The notes under the pieces: model-generated
What the model was told of the DNA's origin: nothing
What the model saw: the letters and a program-made list of their open reading frames with translations, nothing else
The model's database searches: none
Made by a program: the position numbers and the translations under genes
From: Sphingobacteriales bacterium
GTDB lineage: Bacteria; Bacteroidota; Bacteroidia; Chitinophagales; Chitinophagaceae
Direction of reading: 5' to 3'
Assembly (NCBI GenBank): GCA_012270485.1
Contig: JAAXIF010000067.1
Location: 426 to 64,425 of the forward strand
Length of the DNA stretch: 64,000 nt
Shown: piece by piece, positions 5,373 to 56,207 of the stretch
Layout: each line of letters begins with the position of its first letter
Position numbering within the stretch: position 1 is the first letter of the stretch

Positions 5373-5408
5373 ATAGTCCATAGACCATGGTCCATGGGCT
5401 ATGGTCTA
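5373..5408. repeat. GWCYATR heptamer palindrome (REP-like), copy 1
   Basis: ata|GTCCATA|GACCATG|GTCCATG|GGCTATG|GTCTAC. It overlaps the stop codon of the 5406..7898 gene. Confidence 0.85.
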
Positions 5409-46311: not shown

Positions 46312-46881
46312 ATGGAAGAGCAGGCAACAACACAGACACCCGTGAACGAAGAAACACAAGCCAATATTGATATCAATGCGGATGAGAATGCAGCTGGTAC
46401 TTCTCATTTGAATGAGCCGGTAGCAGAGGAAAATCAGTTGGAAAAACTGCAGGCTGAGTTACAAGAGCAGAAGGATAAATACCTCCGTCTCATGGCTGAG
46501 TTCGATAATTTCAGACGTCGTACTGCCAAAGAGCGTATTGAATTGATTCAAACAGCTGGGAAAGATGTGATTGTTTCATTGCTGGATGTGTTGGATGATT
46601 GTGATCGTGCAGAGAAACAATTGCAAAGCAATGATGATATTGCCGTACAAAAAGAAGGCATTCAATTGGTCTTTAATAAACTTCGTTCTAACCTTCAATC
46701 AAAAGGAGTGAAAGCCATGGAAAGTATCCATGCAGAGTTTGATGTAGAGAAACACGAAGCCATCACAGAAATTCCGGCTCCCACTGAAGAGTTAAAAGGA
46801 AAAGTACTGGATGAAGTCATGAAAGGATACTACCTCAATGATAAGATCATTCGTTTTGCAAAAGTGGTGGTAGGGAAATAA
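46312..46881 (+). CDS. grpE: Nucleotide exchange factor GrpE
   Basis: YLRLMAEFDNFRRRTAKE...GYYLNDKIIRFAKVVV. ATG at 46312. Confidence 0.95.
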   Translation: MEEQATTQTPVNEETQANIDINADENAAGTSHLNEPVAEENQLEKLQAELQEQKDKYLRLMAEFDNFRRRTAKERIELIQTAGKDVIVSLLDVLDDCDRAEKQLQSNDDIAVQKEGIQLVFNKLRSNLQSKGVKAMESIHAEFDVEKHEAITEIPAPTEELKGKVLDEVMKGYYLNDKIIRFAKVVVGK

Positions 46882-46883
46882 AG

Positions 46884-46974
46884 TTTGAATTTTTGATTTC
46901 TTGATTTTTCGATTCAATTAGTTAGGTCAAGAAAAACAAATCAAAAAATCAAACATCAAAAAATCAAAGATCAA
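46884..46974. repeat. GATTTTTGATT / AATCAAAAAATC word inverted repeat filling the grpE-dnaJ spacer
   Basis: TTTGAATTTTTGATTTCTTGATTTTTCGATTC ... CAAGAAAAACAAATCAAAAAATCAAACATCAAAAAATCAAAGATCAAA. Confidence 0.8.
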
Positions 46975-46975
46975 A

Positions 46976-48139
46976 ATGGCTAAAAGAGATTTTTACGAAA
47001 TATTGGGTGTGGGCAAATCAGCTTCTGCCGATGAGATTAAAAAAGCTTATCGTAAGGTAGCTATGCAATACCATCCTGATCGTAACCCGAATGATAAAGA
47101 GGCAGAAGAAAAATTTAAGGAAGCTGCCGAAGCCTATGAAGTGCTGAGTGATGCGGATAAGAAAGCCAAATATGACCGATATGGACATGCAGCTTTTGGT
47201 CCGGGTACCGGCGGTGGTGCAGGTGGTTATAGTAATATGGATGATATCTTCAGCCAGTTTGGAGATATTTTCGGTGATGATATGTTCGGAAGTTTCTTTG
47301 GTGGCGGCGGAAGAAGAAGTAGTGGTGGTGGTGGAAGAGCCCGTGGACAAAGAGGAAGCAACCTGCGCATCAAACTGAAATTGAATTTTGAAGAAATTGC
47401 GAAAGGAGTCACCAAGAATGTAAAAGTGAAAAAACATGTCTTGTGCAATACCTGTGGCGGTAATGGTGCAAAAGATAAAAATAGTGTTCAGAATTGTGGA
47501 ACCTGTGGTGGTAGCGGACAAGTGAGAAGAGTGACCAATACTTTTCTTGGACAAATGCAAACCGTAACTACCTGTCCAACTTGTAATGGTGAAGGTTCCA
47601 CTGTAACTGCTAAATGTGGTGCTTGTAAAGGAGAGGGTAGAATGTATGGAGAAGAAACTATTGGCATTGATATTCCGGCAGGTGTTTCTGAAGGAATGCA
47701 GTTAAGTATGAGTGGAAAAGGAAATGCAGGAGAGCGCGGTGGATTTGCAGGAGATTTAATCATTCAAATTGAAGAAGAAACACATCCTGAATTACAGCGC
47801 GACGGATTGAATGTTGCTTATGACCTTCATATCTCTTTTCCGGATGCTGTTTTCGGAACACAAGTAGAAGTGCCTACCATTGATGGGAGAGCAAAAATTA
47901 AAATTCCTGCTGGTACACAGAGTGGTAAAATATTTAGACTCAAAGGCAAAGGATTTCCGGAAGTACAAGGGTACAATAAAGGAGATCAATTGATTTATGT
48001 CAATGTTTGGACACCACAGCAAGTGAGCGATGAAGAGAAACAGATATTGGAGAAACTAAGTCATAGTCCTAATTTTAAACCTCAACCTACGAAGAGCGAT
48101 AAGAGTTTTTTTGATCGTGTAAAAGAAGCATTCAGTTAG
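46976..48139 (+). CDS. dnaJ: Molecular chaperone DnaJ
   Basis: J-domain DFYEILGV...YHPDRNP, a G/F region, and four CxxCxGxG zinc motifs. Confidence 0.97.
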
Positions 48140-49896
48140 TCTGATTTTCTTTTTTTCTTTGATGGGTTGTAAAGTTGCATGGCTTTCTCCAGCAGATGTT
48201 GAAATTCCTGTTGGAGGATATTGTTGGGTGAGACAGTATGTTTACTGAATAAAGCCACATCTTCCAACTGGAATCCCTGCGTGAACTTTGATTTTCGTAA
48301 AATATTGCCAAACATTGCAACAGCGGCGGCAAAACGATAGATACTATCTGTTTGTTCAATTTTTCGTCCGCGATACGGTGCTGTAAAATATTGTTCTTTT
48401 TGATTACCACTGAAAGGATCTTTAAAACGTAGTATTACTTCCGCTAAAGGTGAATTCGCGGAAGTACTGCTGTCTTTTGCAGGAATGATTTCAGCAATCG
48501 CCATGATGGCGTGTCCGCTGCCTATTTCTCCCCCTTCTAATGTACTACTGCTATCTTCTAATGCAGTTTTTTTATTGTCAAATCCTACCAGCCGATATGC
48601 TGCAACAGTTTCCGGATTGAATTGAAGTGTAATGGATGCATCATTGGCAACAGTAAAAATATTTTTGGTAAACTCTGTTACCAATACTTTTTCTGCCTCT
48701 CTGATTTGATCGATATATGCAAAATTACCATTGCCTTTTTTAGATAATGTTTCCAATTTGCTGTCTTTGTAATTACCCATTCCTACACCTAAGCAGGTAA
48801 GATATATACCACTCATTTGATAACGCGTAATGAGTTCTTCCAGTTCCTTTTCTGATGATTGTCCCACATTGAAATCTCCATCAGTCGCCAGTATCACCCT
48901 ATTGTTTCCCCCTTTGATAAAATTTTTCTTCGCAGTTTCATAAGCCAACTGAATGGCTCCAGCGCCTGGTGTATCACCTCCGGCAGATAAGGAATCAATG
49001 ACTTTTTTGATCAGATCTTTATGTTGTCCACCCGTAGGTGCCAATACCATCGCTACGCCGCCACCATATGTAATAATAGAAACAGTGTCGATAGGTCTCA
49101 GATTATTAATGAGTAAACGAAATCCGGATTGTAATAAGGGCAATCGATTGGGCTTATCCATCGAGCCGGAAATATCAATTAGAAAAACCAGATTGGAAGG
49201 CGGGACTTCATGGAGTGGAATGGTAGGTGCTTGTAATTGTAAGAACAATAGTTGGTGTTGAGGGTTCCATGGACAACTACTATGTTCATACGCATATGAA
49301 AATCTTTTTTCTGTCTGTAGGCTATTGGGTGGAAGTGGTAAACTGAAATAGTTCAGCATTTCTTCAATACGTACTGCATCTTGTGGAATCATCATTCCAT
49401 TATTGATGAATCTTCTGATATTGCTGTAAGAGGCATTGTCGATATTCAAAGAAAATCCTGTTTCAGGAAATGTTTTAGTTTTCATCAACTCATTCTCGAT
49501 GATGCTGGTATAACTTTCTCCCAAACCCAGACTATTGATGACAGCGCCTGTAGAGAAATTTTTTACAATAGAAGTTTTATAGTTTTTATACACTTTCGAA
49601 GTGCCCGAACTTGATTTCATCTGTAGTAGTTGAAACTGTCGGCTGTCAACATATATACTTAATGGATCATAGCCTTCAAAGCTTAAGTGGATACTATCTT
49701 TCACAGAAGGTATCGGGATACCAAAGGATCCACTTCCTCCCGAAAAAAAAATGAGACTGGGTTTGGAACTGATTTTTATTTTGACACCACTCAATAAAAC
49801 ACCTTGCTCATTTCTGATCTCACCGCGTAAATAATATTGAGCGTGTGCAGCATGGGTCAGCGATAGCAATAGCAATATCCAAATGAATGAGCGCAT
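48136..49896 (-). CDS. Secreted von Willebrand factor type A protein (YfbK-like)
   Basis: Signal peptide, CarboxypepD_reg-like N-terminus, and MIDAS motif [10 protein letters not shown]...TDGDFN. Confidence 0.8.
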
Positions 49897-49968
49897 TTGG
49901 CAGGGGTTTACATAACAAGTTAACGTAAAAATGCTGCTACTCTGTATGTATAAGGCGTTAAAGCCTTG

Positions 49969-50511
49969 TTATGCTTCGTCTTTGAGCTGATAGATTTCTC
50001 GAATATTCCTACCCAAACCATCATAATCCAGTCCGTAGCCAAGTACAAAACGGTTGGGGATGGTAAAACAGCAATAATCAATCTGTACCGGATACTTCAT
50101 GGCATCGGGCTTATGTAGTAGTACCGCCACTTTTAAAGAGAGTGGTTGTTGATTGACAAGTTGCGGCAGAAATTCACTGAGTGTTTTACCGGTATCAATA
50201 ATGTCTTCCAATATTACAACATGTCGGTTATTGATCTCTGTATCTAATCCAATGGCAGTAATAACATGTCCGGTAGATTTGGTACCCTTGTATGAAGCCA
50301 ATTTAATAAAGCAAATTTCAGCTTCAATCGATAACTCTTTGAACAAATCAGCAGAAAACATGAACGATCCATTCAAGATAGAAATGAACAAAGGTTTTTT
50401 ACCCTGATAATCTTTATCTAATTGAGCTGCCAGTTCTTTGATCTTTTTATGGATCAATGTTTCCGGTAAATAGGGAATGAATTCTTTGTCATGAACTTTG
50501 ATTACCTGCAT
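49969..50511 (-). CDS. hpt: Hypoxanthine phosphoribosyltransferase
   Basis: PRPP loop VVILEDIIDTGKTL, plus GYGLDYDG. Confidence 0.93.
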   Translation of the reverse strand: MQVIKVHDKEFIPYLPETLIHKKIKELAAQLDKDYQGKKPLFISILNGSFMFSADLFKELSIEAEICFIKLASYKGTKSTGHVITAIGLDTEINNRHVVILEDIIDTGKTLSEFLPQLVNQQPLSLKVAVLLHKPDAMKYPVQIDYCCFTIPNRFVLGYGLDYDGLGRNIREIYQLKDEA

Positions 50512-50518
50512 GGATCTA

Positions 50519-51691
50519 TTATTTTGTAGATTTCTTTTTTGTTCCTTTATTGATCTCAGTAGGGGAGCGTAAAAATAATTTTTGTCCGGCAGAAAGCTGA
50601 CTGTCTTTCTTTAACTTATTATACTCTAATAAACTCTCCATTCTAATACCTTCTTTCTGACAAACATCATGTAAGTTTTCACCCGCGGTTACTTCATGAA
50701 AATCAGAAGCACCTCTTTTTTGTTTTTTCTCAATGAAGAGTACCCGATCGATATCGAGTATGTCGATCTCAGATAATTCATTGAACTCAAAAAGTTTGCT
50801 TAAGCTAATATCATATTGATGTGCCAATGCTAACAAAGAAGTGCCCTCTTTAGCATGTACAGCTTTTGTATGATTGATGGTAAATACGCCTTCCGGATAA
50901 GCAACTATTTTCTTTTCTTCAGCAACAGTGCTTGTTTTTTTATCTGTCTCTTCTGTTGGTTTTATTTTTTTAACACTTGTATTAGCTGTTTGAAGCTCTG
51001 TTTGCGGGGCATCTGTTTCCTCTTTTACTACAGCTGTTTTTTGGGTATCATTTTTAATGGCAGCTTCATTTTTGATGGCAGGTACAGATACTTGCTCTGT
51101 AGTTACATGGGGGGCCGTTGTATTTTGTACTGATACTGTAATGGGAGCAGTTTTATTTTCCATCATAGCAATGCCCTGAATCGTATATTGATTCAAATGA
51201 TAGTCTTCAATGACGCGTAATAATTTTTCAGGATAGGTTTTATTCGTGGCATAACCTGCTCTTTTTAATCCGTATGCCCAACCTGTAATATCGGTTAGTT
51301 CTAATTTAAAGAGGAAAGAATAGTGTGGACGTGTCTTTAAAAAATCAGAATGATCGCGGTAAGATTCTTCCGGTGATTTATATACACGGAAACATTCTCC
51401 TTTTGCATCATCATCCTGGAATATTTTATCTCCGGTCCATTCAGTTTTACATTTTATACCGAAATGATTATTGGCATTTTTTGCCAGTGTGCTTTCTCCA
51501 AACTGTGATTCCAGAATACCTTGCGCCAACTTGATGGAAGCAGGTACGCCTGTGCGTATCATTTCCTGAATGGCAAGGTCTTTATAGCTATTGATATAAG
51601 CTTCTGTTCTTTCTTTCACACTGTTACTCTGTGCAACTGAAGTTATCAGTGCAGCGTTGAGTAGTGTGATCAATAAGAAGATTTTTTTCAT
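50519..51691 (-). CDS. Glucosaminidase-domain peptidoglycan hydrolase with two C-terminal LysM domains
   Basis: ASIKLAQGILESQFGESTLAKNANNHFGIKC, plus two LysM-like blocks (HAKEGTSLLALAHQYDISLSKLFEFN; VTAGENLHDVCQKEGIRMESLLEYN). Confidence 0.8.
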   Translation of the reverse strand: MKKIFLLITLLNAALITSVAQSNSVKERTEAYINSYKDLAIQEMIRTGVPASIKLAQGILESQFGESTLAKNANNHFGIKCKTEWTGDKIFQDDDAKGECFRVYKSPEESYRDHSDFLKTRPHYSFLFKLELTDITGWAYGLKRAGYATNKTYPEKLLRVIEDYHLNQYTIQGIAMMENKTAPITVSVQNTTAPHVTTEQVSVPAIKNEAAIKNDTQKTAVVKEETDAPQTELQTANTSVKKIKPTEETDKKTSTVAEEKKIVAYPEGVFTINHTKAVHAKEGTSLLALAHQYDISLSKLFEFNELSEIDILDIDRVLFIEKKQKRGASDFHEVTAGENLHDVCQKEGIRMESLLEYNKLKKDSQLSAGQKLFLRSPTEINKGTKKKSTK

Positions 51692-52341
51692 GTCGTTTTC
51701 TTTTTTACCATCAGTAATCCGTCTCTGATGGTGAGTAAAACCTGTTCAGTTCTAGGGTCTTGTTTCACATGTTCATTGAATGCATGTATGGCTTTGGCAT
51801 TCTTTCCACTAATAGGGTCTTCCAATACCTGTCCGTGAAACAGCACATTGTCTGCAAGAATGATACCATTTTCGGCTATACGTGGAATCAATTGTTCATA
51901 GTAGCCTATATACCCCGTCTTATCCGCATCAATGAAAACCAGATCCCATGGATGATTCAGCGTAGGAATGATTTCCCCCGCATTTCCGATGTGCAAATGT
52001 ATTTGATCCTTTCTGTAGCTTTTGCTAAAATAGTTCCGGGCTATTTGGGCATCTTCCTCCCTGCATTCGATGGTATGAAGTTCTCCATCGTTCTGTAGAC
52101 CTTCTACCAGACAAAGCGCACTGTATCCGGTAAAAGTTCCTATTTCTAAAACGTATTTTGGACGTAGAATAGTACTTAGGAAAGCAAGGAATTTTCCCTG
52201 AACCTGTCCACTCAGCATATGGGCATGGGGGTGATGGGCTTTTGTATACTCCTCAATCTCGGTCAACAACGCATCATCAGCCGAGGTAAATAGCTGTGCA
52301 TAGGCTTCTGCCTCAGGGGAAACGATCAGGGGGGTAGACAT
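51688..52341 (-). CDS. Class I SAM-dependent O-methyltransferase (family 3)
   Basis: VLEIGTFTGYSALCL..., FIDADK. Confidence 0.8.
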   Translation of the reverse strand: MSTPLIVSPEAEAYAQLFTSADDALLTEIEEYTKAHHPHAHMLSGQVQGKFLAFLSTILRPKYVLEIGTFTGYSALCLVEGLQNDGELHTIECREEDAQIARNYFSKSYRKDQIHLHIGNAGEIIPTLNHPWDLVFIDADKTGYIGYYEQLIPRIAENGIILADNVLFHGQVLEDPISGKNAKAIHAFNEHVKQDPRTEQVLLTIRDGLLMVKKKTT

Positions 52342-52365
52342 GGGGCAAAGATAGGGATAGGTGGT

Positions 52366-52397
52366 GGTTCATGGCTAATGGTTCATAGTCCATGGTT
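52366..52397. repeat. GWCYATR heptamer repeat (degenerate), copy 4
   Basis: g|GTTCATG|GCTAATG|GTTCATA|GTCCATG|gtt. Confidence 0.65.
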
Positions 52398-52638
52398 TTA
52401 GTGAGTAGGTAATAAAAAATTTTAAAATTATTTGTGAAACTGACTATGATTTACGATTTATCAATGTGTATGAAAAATTATTTTCTCTACATATTGATTA
52501 CTTGAATTGCGGCAAATTATATCCAATGATAATAGTGTCTTTTGCGATTTTTTAAATCTCATATAATTACTTGTCTAATCATGAAGATAATTTATTGATT
52601 TGAAATGATTTATAAATATTTTATATATATTCCAATAG

Positions 52639-52661
52639 TTATCTATATTGCATATAGATAA
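52639..52661. promoter_or_regulatory. Perfect 10-bp palindrome upstream of the AT-rich cassette (operator-like)
   Basis: TTATCTATAT-tgc-ATATAGATAA, 28 nt before the ATG at 52690. Confidence 0.4.
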
Positions 52662-52689
52662 TAAAATATTCATAAATAAAATATGAAAG

Positions 52690-53247
52690 ATGTTGCTTAA
52701 AATAGCTTTTGCTTTGATATCATGTAGTTTCTTATATACCTCCTTTTCTCAGGATGTGAAAAAGGATTCACAAAAGACTGAAACTAAAATGGATGTATTG
52801 GCATCTAAAACTGGTGTAATAGTTAAGTTTATTGATTATAAATTACCTGACTTAAAATTGTCTTATGGTTCGGTAGCTGAAACAAGAATAAGAAAGATTA
52901 TAAGTGGTACTGAGATAAAATTTTTTTATCAAATCGAAAGTCAAGGAAAATATAGTAGCAGTACTGCATCTATCGACTATACCGATTTAATTGATATTAT
53001 TAATGCTTTAAAAGCTTTAAAAAGTGAAGTTGATAAAGATGTTTTACTTAACCCAGACTATTTAGAAAATAAATTTTCTACGCTTGATGGATTTCAAGTT
53101 GGCTATTATGTAAGTAAAAATAAGGTTAGCTGGTATTTAAGACTTGAAAAGTATGGATCTGACGCAACGATTTTTATTAAAGACGGTGAAGTCATTGAAA
53201 ATGCTTTTAATGACGCGAGAATAAAAATAGAAGAATTGAAGAAATGA
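52690..53247 (+). CDS. Hypothetical secreted protein (AT-rich cassette gene 1)
   Basis: Signal peptide MLLKIAFALISCSFLYTSFSQ. No recognisable family. Confidence 0.6.
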   Translation: MLLKIAFALISCSFLYTSFSQDVKKDSQKTETKMDVLASKTGVIVKFIDYKLPDLKLSYGSVAETRIRKIISGTEIKFFYQIESQGKYSSSTASIDYTDLIDIINALKALKSEVDKDVLLNPDYLENKFSTLDGFQVGYYVSKNKVSWYLRLEKYGSDATIFIKDGEVIENAFNDARIKIEELKK

Positions 53248-53285
53248 GTTTTTATTTCAGATTACAACTCTAAAAAAAATCTATA

Positions 53286-54710
53286 ATGAGTTTTCATTCA
53301 CAATCATCAGCTTTAAAAAGGTATATTAAAGATACTTTTGAACAGTTTGTTTCACCAATAGAAACTGTGCAATGGTCAACATGGGAAACCAATGATGATA
53401 TGCCTGACGGGAAACATATCATTTGGGTAGGTTTTTATACTCTTTCTATGGCATTATCAAATATTGACAATCATTTTTCTATAGATGAAGTTGACTTTTT
53501 TCGTGATATAAAAAATATATTCGATGTAGAAGATTCTAACGTCGCAGCTTTACCATCAGAAAAGCTTTTACATATTTACAAAGATAATTTTGAAGAAAAT
53601 CGTCATTTGTTTGGAGAGATTAAGGTGCCAATTGCAGTAGAATATTTGGATATCTACGATAATGCTTACGGAACTGACTTTGGACAAAGTGCAAGAACTA
53701 TGTATTTCCGATTTGCTAATGCCTTTGTAAAAGCTGACGGGACTGTGAATGAAGCTGAAGTTGAAGCGCTTGAAAAATTAAAAAGTTTATTATATCCATT
53801 AGAAAATGATACAGTTGAAGTTTCAAGTATTTCGTTTGGTTCCCCAAAAAATGAAGAAACAAGCCCTCGTTCTTTTGATGAATTAATGGCTGAGCTAGAT
53901 AACTTAATCGGATTAAATAATGTGAAGAGAGATGTTCTTGAAATGATTAACTTTCTCAAAGTTCAACAATTAAGGGAAGCTAAAGGGTTGTCGGTTACGC
54001 CTACTACAAAACATCTAGTTTTTTATGGAAATCCCGGAACAGGGAAAACTATGATAGCAAGACTTTTAGCAGAAATTTACAAAGAGTTGAATGTCATAAA
54101 TAAAGGACATTTAGTGGAAACAGATAGAGCTGGTTTAGTAGCAGGTTATGTAGGTCAAACTGCTTTAAAAGTTCATGAAGTTGTTAATAGGGCATTAGGA
54201 GGGGTTTTATTTATTGATGAAGCTTATACTTTGAAAAGTGATAGTGGTGATTTTGGAGCAGAAGCAATTGATACTTTATTGAAACTAATGGAAGATAATA
54301 GAAATAATCTTATTGTTATTGTAGCGGGTTATACTGAAAAAATGAAGGCGTTTCTTTCAGCAAATCCTGGATTAAAATCGAGATTTAATAAATATCTTTT
54401 TTTTGAAGATTATTCTCCTGAAGAGTTAAAAAATATTTTTCTTAAGCTGTGCCAAGATGCTAGTTTTCATGTAACAGACACTGCTAAAGAAAAAATATTT
54501 GGAATATTTAATATTCTCTCCAAACATAAAGATGAATCTTTTGGAAATGCACGATTGGCAAGAAATATCTTTGAAAAAGCAGTGAATAATCAGGCTAATC
54601 GAATTATTGTTATTAGTGAAATAACAGAAACGATCTTATCAACAATAGAAGTATCAGATATTCCTGACGAATTAGAGATTCAGTTGTCTATATCATCAAT
54701 TTACAAGTAA
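53286..54710 (+). CDS. AAA+ ATPase of the CbbX/SpoVK type with ~230-aa N-terminal domain (possibly TerB-like)
   Basis: Walker A GNPGTGKT, Walker B VLFIDEAY, then LIVIVAGY and NPGLKSRF. The N-domain contains FANAFVKADGTVNEAEVEALEKL. Confidence 0.8.
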   Translation: MSFHSQSSALKRYIKDTFEQFVSPIETVQWSTWETNDDMPDGKHIIWVGFYTLSMALSNIDNHFSIDEVDFFRDIKNIFDVEDSNVAALPSEKLLHIYKDNFEENRHLFGEIKVPIAVEYLDIYDNAYGTDFGQSARTMYFRFANAFVKADGTVNEAEVEALEKLKSLLYPLENDTVEVSSISFGSPKNEETSPRSFDELMAELDNLIGLNNVKRDVLEMINFLKVQQLREAKGLSVTPTTKHLVFYGNPGTGKTMIARLLAEIYKELNVINKGHLVETDRAGLVAGYVGQTALKVHEVVNRALGGVLFIDEAYTLKSDSGDFGAEAIDTLLKLMEDNRNNLIVIVAGYTEKMKAFLSANPGLKSRFNKYLFFEDYSPEELKNIFLKLCQDASFHVTDTAKEKIFGIFNILSKHKDESFGNARLARNIFEKAVNNQANRIIVISEITETILSTIEVSDIPDELEIQLSISSIYK

Positions 54711-54746
54711 AAAAATAGTATGTGAATTTGTCGTAGTTCAGAAAAG

Positions 54747-56207
54747 CTAATTGTGTAAATTTTTTTTCTTCGAAATCAGCATCAATCCTGAGAAAGTAAT
54801 AGCTCCATTGATAATCAGGAGTTCCAATCCAATTTCGAAGGAGCCGAATATTTGTTTTTGGAATTTATCCAACATCAGACAGATCAATGGCGAGGCAATA
54901 CAAACGATGGGAACCAGTGTATCATTTACTGAACGTTTCAATAAAATACCAAAAGTAAAAAGACCTAATAATGGTCCATAAGTATAAGCAGCCACTTTCA
55001 ATATAACACCGATCATACTGCTGCTATCGATCCATTTATACACCATTACAAATAACAAGAATATTCCGGCAAATACGAGGTGTACTCTTTGTCTGATTTT
55101 TTTCTTTTGTGCGTCTGTCCAGTCATCTCTTCTTTGTAAACCAATGATATCAATACAAAATGATGAGGTCAATGCTGTAATGGCCCCATCGGCACTCGGG
55201 AATAATGCGGAGATCAGGGCGATGATGAATATCACAGATACCAAACTTGGCATATGGTTGAGTGCAATCGTAGGGAAGAGTTTATCGCCTGTTGCAGCTA
55301 TTCCTTGTGCATCGGCATACAAGTGTAAGAGTCCACCTAGGAATAAGAACAAACCGATTACCGCCAACATGATAAATCCTAAAGTCACTACATTCTTTTG
55401 TGAGTCTTTCAAAGTCTTCACAGAAATGTTTTTTTGCATCATCTCCTGATCCATTCCTGTCATGGTGATGGTTACAAAAGCACCTGCAAGAATTTGTTTC
55501 AGGAAAAAGAAACGGCTTTCAGGTTCAGTAAAGAATATTTTGGAATATCCTTTATCACCCATGGCAGCAAAGCTTTCAGAGATACCCATATCCAGCTGAC
55601 TCAAAATATACACCACGCAAATCACTAGTCCAATTAACATACAGGAAGTCTGTAATGTATCGGTCCATACGATTGTTTTTACACCTCCTTCATACGTATA
55701 CAATAAGATCATCGCCAGAATGATGAGTGTGGTTGCCCAGAAAGGCACATGAAAACTTTCCAGGATTGCATCTTGTAAAATACGCACCACCAAATAAAGA
55801 CGTGCAGTGGCACCCAGTGTTCGGGATAAGATAAAAAAGGATGCGCCCGTTTTATAGGAGTTCACTCCCAAGCGAGAGCTTAGATAGTTGTAGATGGAAG
55901 TGAGGTTCAATTTATAATACAGAGGTAATAATACAAATGCAATTACCATATAACCAATCAGGTATCCCAATGTAATTTGCATGTACGCAAATGATTCTTT
56001 GGCAACAGCTCCCGGCACACTTACAAAAGTGACACCACTCAATGAAGTGCCGATCATACCAAATGCCACCAGCATCCAGTTACTATTTCTGTTACCGATA
56101 AAGAAAGAATCGTTGTTACTGTTTCTTCCGGTATACCAGGCAACTACCAATAAGATTAAAAAGTAAATGATCACAAAGGAGAACAACAGGAGTGGAGACA
56201 TATCCAA
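54747..56207 (-). CDS. Sodium:solute symporter family transporter
   Basis: 486 aa with about 13 TM segments and an SSF-style N-terminus (WYTGRNSNNDSFFIGNRNSNWMLVAFGMIGTSLSG). Confidence 0.8.
   Translation of the reverse strand: MDMSPLLLFSFVIIYFLILLVVAWYTGRNSNNDSFFIGNRNSNWMLVAFGMIGTSLSGVTFVSVPGAVAKESFAYMQITLGYLIGYMVIAFVLLPLYYKLNLTSIYNYLSSRLGVNSYKTGASFFILSRTLGATARLYLVVRILQDAILESFHVPFWATTLIILAMILLYTYEGGVKTIVWTDTLQTSCMLIGLVICVVYILSQLDMGISESFAAMGDKGYSKIFFTEPESRFFFLKQILAGAFVTITMTGMDQEMMQKNISVKTLKDSQKNVVTLGFIMLAVIGLFLFLGGLLHLYADAQGIAATGDKLFPTIALNHMPSLVSVIFIIALISALFPSADGAITALTSSFCIDIIGLQRRDDWTDAQKKKIRQRVHLVFAGIFLLFVMVYKWIDSSSMIGVILKVAAYTYGPLLGLFTFGILLKRSVNDTLVPIVCIASPLICLMLDKFQKQIFGSFEIGLELLIINGAITFSGLMLISKKKNLHN

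Follow-up and report, generated by a model that had tools for sequence, protein, structure and literature searches.

A low-GC island of a Sediminibacterium genome probably combines two independent accessory genes, for a predicted exported protein and a TerB-like AAA+ ATPase

Between an O-methyltransferase gene and an SSF symporter gene, a 64,000-nucleotide (nt) stretch of contig JAAXIF010000067.1 (assembly GCA_012270485.1; hereafter the window) carries an island of low G+C content (GC) with two genes on the same strand, gene 1 and gene 2. An earlier note, made from the sequence alone, had proposed that a secreted or periplasmic product of gene 1 and a cytoplasmic remodelling ATPase encoded by gene 2 work as one stress, conflict or defence system. 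We found that the pair is not conserved at any sampled locus outside the window type. We consider it likely that the region holds two functionally independent accessory genes that came to lie head to tail by chance, one for a phage- and island-borne factor that would be exported, the other for a putative one-client chaperone whose AAA+ module follows a TerB-like N-terminal domain (N-domain). The island and its two genes, whose open reading frames (ORFs) are as the earlier note had them, are as follows.

52354 to 54764, unstranded: low-GC island in a hypervariable intergenic slot, delimited by the break and resumption of homology with the closest sister contig and by the lowest 2.3-kb GC
52690 to 53247, plus strand: gene 1, an ORF for a 185-amino-acid (aa) protein, predicted to be exported
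53286 to 54710, plus strand: gene 2, an ORF for a 474-aa AAA+ ATPase, 38 nt downstream of gene 1

To establish whether gene 1 and gene 2 travel together, we compared their loci elsewhere. Scanning a single genome per species gave 101 gene 1 loci; 80 were kept, and with 17 viral loci these make 97. The gene 2-family loci (n = 19) include L081, L088, 14 metagenome loci (L089-L102) and two plasmid records. When either half of gene 2 was searched by tblastn within 6 kb on both sides of the gene 1 homologues, no gene 2-like sequence was found at any of the 80 genome loci; the same search recovers gene 2 in the window itself. Nor did an AAA+-type neighbour show up when the ORFs of the 17 viral loci were clustered. 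In the other direction, gene 1 was found at none of the 19 gene 2-family loci, with its absence from the two plasmid records resting on zero gene 1 matches in the plasmid collection. Tested as a conserved two-gene operon, the pair therefore scores 0/97 at gene 1 loci and 0/19 at gene 2-family loci. The earlier note had itself named a failure of the two genes to co-occur elsewhere as what would speak against a paired system, and this failure is what we observed. We caution that genes may adjoin in an AT-rich island without forming a unit at the operon level.

The island is strain-specific. We gathered sister genomes through variants of DnaJ, whose gene lies 4.5 kb upstream of the island and whose 90%-identity cluster has Sediminibacterium metagenome-assembled genomes as its named members. 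The sisters share a conserved block before the slot (GrpE-DnaJ-VWA-HPRT-glucosaminidase-methyltransferase). In the closest sister contig (L133), the flanks are 91-92% identical at the nucleotide level, homology stops at 52353 and resumes at 54765, and the slot holds an unrelated 195-aa ORF resembling an outer-membrane protein. The slot is empty in a 119-kb JGI contig, where methyltransferase and symporter are 121 bp apart; four further sisters (L128, L129, L131, and L132) fill it with a 91-aa ORF, a LysR gene, an isocitrate dehydrogenase gene, and two small ORFs, and the region at the slot is rearranged in L134 and L135. Neither gene 1 nor gene 2 is present in any of the sister relatives compared. 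Because close Sediminibacterium relatives carry other contents or nothing in the slot, the data support the view that the island is an acquired, strain-specific filling of a hypervariable intergenic position. This bears out the horizontal acquisition suspected in the earlier note, which had called for just such a presence/absence check in sister genomes. No direct repeats, tRNA, or integrase flank the island at its borders. As a separate observation, the LysR gene of the four sisters is divergent from the isocitrate dehydrogenase gene, which places a core-metabolism-looking enzyme among the variable content of the slot.

The composition of the island is distinct as well. GC is 0.23-0.35 over 52400-54800 and about 0.38-0.42 in the flanks, and the 2.3 kb from 52400 are the lowest of that length in the window (0.293 versus 0.397), in line with the strikingly lower GC described in the earlier note. 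By part, GC is 0.289 in gene 1, 0.316 in gene 2, and 0.20 in the spacer ahead of them. Within its own population the gene 1 plus gene 2 content is fixed: the exact gene 2 protein is encoded on contigs from ~40 sample blocks, as is the exact methyltransferase, and the arrangement is constant save for one contig. That contig (L106, from JGI 3300076230) joins window positions 53156-54680 to an inverted 46688-53287, so that a 471-aa ATPase variant seems to converge on gene 1; we considered it as an inverted-ATPase allele and rejected it as an assembly chimera. The neighbours of the island in the window are housekeeping genes, and no defence island surrounds it at this locus.

Gene 1 represents a mobile family: AT-rich and unaccompanied, the gene passes among Bacteroidota and their temperate siphophages. 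Its 335 homologues, at 57-75% identity, are scattered sporadically across Chitinophagia, Sphingobacteriia, Flavobacteriia, Cytophagia, and Bacteroidia. The commonest neighbour is present at no more than 16 of the 80 loci, and those neighbours that do recur (a TPR histidine kinase with a LuxR regulator, an SNase, an HSDR_N nuclease, and unannotated proteins) reflect lineage synteny; none of the genes that flank the island in the window stands beside a gene 1 homologue elsewhere. At 56 of 60 loci the flanks exceed gene 1 in GC, with a mean difference of 5.6 points. One locus (L023, 5900-6600) is a ~600-bp island of GC 0.35 that consists of a gene 1 homologue in a ~70% GC contig binned as Flavobacteriales, i.e., either a striking cross-phylum transfer of a single gene or a chimeric or mis-binned contig. 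Homologues were also found in 17 IMG/VR viral contigs. In one group of siphophage contigs among them, the annotated group (L117-L124), the homologue belongs to the late region, with a tail protein on one side and the tape-measure gene on the other, which is a classic moron position; in these contigs and in four others (L110 and L112-L114) it adjoins a divergent anti-repressor gene of the Ant/KilAC type. INPHARED phages and PLSDB plasmids gave no match to gene 1.

To better understand what gene 1 encodes, we examined its sequence and predicted structure. The protein has no match in Pfam, NCBIfam, or PADLOC and one weak match in PHROG, in keeping with the earlier description of a 185-aa signal-peptide protein without a recognisable family. 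Residues ~1-20 form a signal peptide with a predicted cleavage site ..SFS|QD, and the Kyte-Doolittle maximum lies at residue 1. Q21, directly after the small-residue c-region, is invariant in the family alignment. Signal peptidase I sites of Bacteroidota commonly have Gln next. Given the signal sequence, the invariant Q21, and this Gln habit, the product is predicted to be exported. An AlphaFold model built with 20 sequences (predicted local distance difference test score, pLDDT, 81) contains two beta-beta-beta-beta-alpha repeats: by DSSP, strands 45-56, 62-72, 75-85, and 90-96 followed by helix 97-120, and strands 124-130, 135-142, 145-152, and 160-163 followed by helix 166-184. In a Foldseek search of the PDB, the top match was PUR-alpha repeat I-II (E 7e-3, probability 1.0, TM 0.44-0.52), with PUR-alpha repeat matches at probability 0.95-1.0 and the Whirly-type MRP1/2 next; a search of BFVD gave no significant match.

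This likeness, at about 9-12% identity, is one of fold only. PUR-alpha and Whirly proteins share with the gene 1 model their repeated beta-beta-beta-beta-alpha units, whereas they are intracellular nucleic-acid binders and the gene 1 product stands behind a signal peptide, and gene 1 does not match Pfam PUR or DUF3276. Since the signal sequence and Q21 argue for export, a function shared with these proteins is doubtful. We propose that gene 1 encodes a phage- and island-borne accessory factor that would be exported by the Sec pathway, leaving a mature protein of ~160 aa with a (beta4-alpha)x2 fold that may act in the periplasm or on the cell surface. Most likely it would serve in lysogenic conversion or exclusion, the role that we find the most economical guess, or else be an orphan protective factor. 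The interest of the family lies in its strong conservation, its single-gene hopping among Bacteroidota, and its moron positions in phages, all for a protein with no Pfam model. Gene 1 is therefore a candidate for lysogenic conversion or exclusion in a phylum whose factors of this kind are poorly known.

Gene 2 divides into three parts.

53286 to 53801, plus strand: putative TerB-like N-domain of seven helices, aa 1-172, from profiles and model
53802 to 53876, plus strand: low-confidence, unstructured linker, aa 173-197, with pLDDT ~70 after residue 170
53877 to 54710, plus strand: AAA+ module with AAA_lid_6, of the SpoVK/CbbX/EccA clade by Pfam, NCBIfam, and motifs

The linker region is a domain boundary in every member of the gene 2 family. 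For the C-terminal part, Pfam recognises AAA (5e-20) and AAA_lid_6 (1e-15), and the three NCBIfam models of the clade all match, each below its equivalog cut-off: SpoVK (TIGR02881) with 278.7 bits (3e-83; cut-off 422.95), EccA (TIGR03922) with 236.2 bits (7e-70; cut-off 466.65), and CbbX (TIGR02880) with 225.6 bits (7e-67; cut-off 459.25). The solved structures that best match the C-terminal 270 aa are CbbX (1e-54) and EccA1 (PDB 9lur; 4e-47). The earlier assignment of the module to the CbbX/SpoVK/EccA type was thus right, and the motifs on which it drew are all present and intact: Walker A GNPGTGKT at aa 248-255, Walker B VLFIDEAY at aa 307-314, and NPGLKSRF at aa 360-367 (NPGLKSR at 360-366). 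The clade is marked by a sensor-1 GY, an Asn upstream of the arginine finger, and a sensor-2 Arg (PMC11513918). Gene 2 has the AAA+ core, AAA_lid_6, a sensor-1 AGY at aa 347-349 (GY at 348-349), the Asn, and a sensor-2 GNAR at aa 420-423, a set that by sequence places it in the clade. Its pore loop GYVGQT (aa 287-292) corresponds to the YIG of CbbX. At the N+4 "first finger" site gene 2 has Lys where the family varies among R, K, E, and Q, and the arginine of the SR motif is invariant. Across the gene 2-family loci the AAA+ halves are ~60% identical. No hydrophobic or transmembrane segment was found in gene 2, which we infer to encode a cytoplasmic, hexameric, threading-competent ATPase.

The N-domain is less readily placed. 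In the window protein, it scores 12.9-15.6 bits against Pfam TerB (PF05099), whose cut-off is 24.4. Among members of the N-domain family, however, 24 of 35 match Pfam TerB, with a best E of 2.6e-7, and three pass the cut-off (P0130 with 30.8 bits, P0142 with 26.5, and P0125 with 24.5); the alignments of P0125 and P0155 cover profile positions 4-107 of 118. Since the window protein falls under the cut-off and its homologues over it, membership is transitive, and we regard a TerB-like N-domain as supported on these terms. The most conserved parts of the N-domain (alignments A2 and A3) are two helix-loop-helix acidic motifs, D61...E68 and D151-G152...E158, the first of which has N in place of G in the window protein. 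The second motif falls within FANAFVKADGTVNEAEVEALEKL at aa 143-165. An AlphaFold model of the N-domain reached a pLDDT of 92.6 and has seven helices. A sequence-profile search of the PDB with the N-domain returned noise, plus 2h5n at a weak E of 0.79. This entry is a P. gingivalis hypothetical protein that we presume to be TerB-like.

Searched exhaustively, 1.84 billion representatives yielded 110 clusters of the N-domain family; word-index homologue searches gave 4 matches with the single sequence and 7 with a profile, too few for context, and the metagenome scan for the gene 2 family was made with an alignment of 10 closer sequences. The domain is combined in several ways: N-AAA (~470 aa), N-N-AAA (650-680 aa), thioredoxin-N-AAA, and free N (170-200 aa). 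In P0142 (563 aa), a thioredoxin domain forms the N terminus and is followed by the TerB-like domain and then the AAA+ module, which hints at a redox-linked variant of the family. At L088 (6455-10210), in a higher-GC organism, two free-standing TerB-like proteins (246 and 230 aa) are encoded directly upstream of an N-AAA-AAA gene that combines a short TerB-like motif with two tandem SpoVK-clade AAA+ modules and has an apparent frameshift at ~8723. The closest relative of the N-domain (P0121, 58% identity; L081, 8001-8852) is a remnant that ends just after Walker A, which points to turnover and decay within the gene 2 family. GC is low around this remnant and the genes near it are unannotated; one of them has a signal-peptide-like N terminus.

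Among the contexts examined, the gene 2 family has no conserved partner. Relatives are found near a TIR_2-receiver protein and DUF4407 (L097), immediately upstream of XRE/HigA-like helix-turn-helix genes (L098 and L099, the former also with an AIG2-like cyclotransferase), near a DDE transposase (L100), and near an ECF sigma factor and a Ser/Thr kinase (L091-L093). On a Methylibium megaplasmid, the full-length member WP_011831427.1, annotated "AAA family ATPase", lies near Sir2, HNH, a phosphorothioation-dependent restriction enzyme, and integrase remnants. In Bacteroides finegoldii the relative sits among ordinary genes; MFS transporter and YchF genes are its neighbours in Bacteroides. These contexts hint at conflict or mobile neighbourhoods and nothing more, and neither gene 2 nor its N-domain was found in viral contigs.

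How might such a protein work? The characterised members of the clade are chaperones that specialise in a narrow set of clients and recruit them through variable N-terminal domains (PMC11513918). We suggest that the TerB-like domain would crown the hexamer and either bind one dedicated client or sense a membrane- or metal-linked cue. The AAA+ ring would then remodel the client by ATP-driven pulling on a peptide segment, much as CbbX acts on RuBisCO and SpoVK on MurG. The client would be a protein other than that of gene 1. Where loci encode free-standing N-domain proteins, these may be adaptors or competitors.

Gene 2 resembles several known systems without being any of them. Like gene 2, CbbX (PDB 3zuh/3syl) has a Y-hydrophobic-G pore loop, an NPG..SR motif, and an AAA_lid_6 lid; unlike gene 2, it lacks a TerB-like N-domain and is encoded alongside RuBisCO genes, none of which is found in the window neighbourhood. 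SpoVK, the sporulation chaperone of MurG in Bacillota, gives the top NCBIfam score and shares the sensor-1 GY and the principle of variable N-terminal recruiting domains, whereas SpoVK has a short N-domain of its own, three strands plus a helix, and is confined to sporulating Bacillota (PMC11513918); the host here belongs to the Bacteroidota. EccA, an AAA+ chaperone of type VII secretion, is of the same clade and has a helical N-domain with a substrate-specific role, but its N-domains are TPR and beta-helix and it belongs to ESX loci; there is no type VII secretion system here. With scores below all three cut-offs, and with a context and an N-domain wrong for each, we rejected gene 2 as a CbbX, SpoVK, or EccA. 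IetA of the Ietas system shows a generic similarity to gene 2 as a classical AAA+ protein (PADLOC, 3e-12), but the NCBIfam IteA model gives 31.3 bits against a cut-off of 510 and no IetS protease lies beside gene 2, so that this candidate was rejected as well.

The N-domain shares with the TerB superfamily the paired helix - D-G-x-x-x-x-x-E - helix motifs and differs from it in its greater length (~170 aa, with an extra N-terminal helix and an insert) and in the fusion to a SpoVK-clade AAA+ module. TerB proteins occur in the defence systems Shango, Bunzi, and Dionysus. In PADLOC, gene 2 matches AAA+ models only (IetA, DolB, TRIP13, and mad8), with no match to SngA or BnzA, and none of the partner genes of those systems (helicase/ATPase, transmembrane protein, or pore former) was found near it. 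We therefore discarded membership of Shango, Bunzi, or Dionysus, and with either protein PADLOC showed generic AAA+ similarity at most. In the full-text literature covered, which does not extend to the 2012 Ter survey of Anantharaman, Iyer, and Aravind, we found no account of a fusion of TerB with a SpoVK, CbbX, or other AAA+ module. We see in gene 2 a new N-domain architecture of a known chaperone clade and in gene 1 a member of an unnamed, widespread family. The gene 2 relatives form a coherent unnamed family that unites the TerB-like domain (single, tandem, thioredoxin-fused, or free) with the SpoVK/CbbX/EccA clade. The family adds a recruiting or sensing domain to a clade of one-client chaperones and offers a biochemical handle on the binding targets of TerB-type domains. 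Neither finding resolves a long-standing question.

Several points weigh against our reading of two independent genes. Gene 1 and gene 2 are probably co-transcribed, since 38 nt separate them on one strand and no terminator-like site was found in between; they may also have arrived together from an unsampled donor, because both are similarly low in GC; and a lineage-specific functional link between them is conceivable. The context sample for gene 2 is small: it comprises 19 loci, of which many are short. What the reading says on function is inferred, and the assignment to TerB rests on sequence profiles: a Foldseek search of the PDB with the N-domain model gave nothing better than E 0.9 and no TerB entry. 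The TerB-like N-domain of the earlier note accordingly stands at the level of family profiles (24 of 35 matching, three over the cut-off) and was not confirmed by the fold search. The adjacency on one strand, the 38-nt gap without a predicted terminator, and the shared low GC would suit a single stress, conflict, or defence system in which gene 1 is a periplasmic sensor or effector and gene 2 a cytoplasmic TerB-like AAA+ remodeller, as would the confinement of both genes to one acquired island and the place of TerB domains in Shango, Bunzi, and Dionysus. Such a system is barely credible to us, given that the pair is missing from 97/97 gene 1 loci and 19/19 gene 2-family loci, that gene 1 is mobile alone, in phages and as the single-gene island L023, that the gene 2 family keeps its architecture without gene 1, that no PADLOC system matches amid housekeeping surroundings, and that the two products are predicted to reside in different compartments. 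It is likewise very unlikely that the TerB-like-N/SpoVK-clade family is a self-contained conflict or stress module, captured here with a phage-derived exported PUR-like protein with which it cooperates across the inner membrane. On that account, a membrane or metal perturbation (e.g., phage entry) would be sensed by the TerB-like domain or domains, and these would gate an AAA+ unfoldase that takes a specific complex apart.

Each gene taken alone also admits a different role. Gene 2 could be a single-gene conflict or defence module rather than a dedicated chaperone of the housekeeping type, its TerB-like domain watching membrane or metal and its AAA+ ring disassembling a phage or host complex. 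Relatives beside conflict or mobile genes (L097, L098, L099, L100, and the Methylibium plasmid), a patchy family in low-GC islands, the TerB domains of known defence systems, and the weak similarity to IetA are in its favour. We nevertheless judge this unlikely: the family has no conserved partner or island type, occurs in ordinary contexts too (MFS and YchF in Bacteroides; ECF sigma factor and kinase), was not found in viral contigs, and is far below family level for IteA (31 versus 510 bits), and the known members of the clade are chaperones rather than effectors. Gene 1, for its part, might be an orphan periplasmic immunity protein against an interbacterial toxin, and not a factor of exclusion or of benefit to phages. 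A small, highly conserved, sporadic protein with predicted export that travels as a single gene, in the company of other small secreted hypothetical proteins, would fit that description, yet no toxin or secretion-system gene recurs beside it, phages carry it within their structural modules, and its fold is nearer to the nucleic-acid-binding PUR/Whirly repeats than to any immunity fold in the PDB search. We hold this to be quite improbable and retain two independent accessory genes, an exported phage-borne factor and a dedicated chaperone, as the likely content of the island.

The remaining features of the locus lie in and around the spacer upstream of gene 1.

52341, minus strand: start codon of the O-methyltransferase gene, one border of the slot
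54747, minus strand: stop codon of the SSF symporter gene, the other border
52363 to 52397, plus strand: degenerate heptamer-based repeat resembling a repetitive extragenic palindrome (REP), a decayed version of the repeat family of the window
52400 to 52689, plus strand: A/T-rich spacer of 290 nt (GC 0.20), the presumed promoter region of gene 1
52639 to 52661, unstranded: perfect palindrome TTATCTATAT-tgc-ATATAGATAA with 10-nt arms, from sequence inspection

No Bacteroidota-type TAnnTTTG promoter motif was found on the plus strand ahead of gene 1 or gene 2, and sigma-70-like matches were in no excess over shuffled sequence. The palindrome, which is present in the spacer as the earlier note had it, sits inside a second inverted repeat (52608-52624/52661-52677). 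When the spacer was shuffled, 71 of 2000 sequences (3.6%) contained an arm of at least 10, i.e., the palindrome is marginally beyond chance for such AT-rich DNA, and no sequence resembling it was found upstream of gene 1 homologues elsewhere. On both counts it was ruled out as a conserved operator, and we regard it as a possible local operator and not as a defining feature of the island. The degenerate REP copy of the earlier note is acceptable as a decayed member of a heptamer repeat family (GTCCATAG/ACCATGG) at six or more intergenic sites of the window, with intact copies at 5387, 18335, 20625, 60900, 60989, and 63956. Its unit consists of palindromic tandem heptamers (..GTCCATAG-ACCATGG-TCCATGG-ACTATGGAC..), the core motif has 12 matches in the window against 2.95 expected, and the whole looks like a REP-like element of this Sediminibacterium genome.

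The identical 2.3-kb island (100% of sampled words) is present in subsurface, coral-reef, freshwater, drinking-water, groundwater, soil, and seawater metagenomes, and also in DNA and RNA runs that bear the names of many other organisms. Its wide distribution among runs, together with its Sediminibacterium identity, suggests that the strain is ubiquitous and associated with water or reagents, and it may be a common contaminant. In contigs from RNA runs, coverage is flat across genes and spacers alike, a pattern that fits contaminating DNA equally with transcription and is thus uninformative on expression or operon structure. Just outside the island, TATCTTTG at 52346-52353 on the minus strand matches the Bacteroidota -7 motif TAnnTTTG, 5-12 nt upstream of the methyltransferase start codon.

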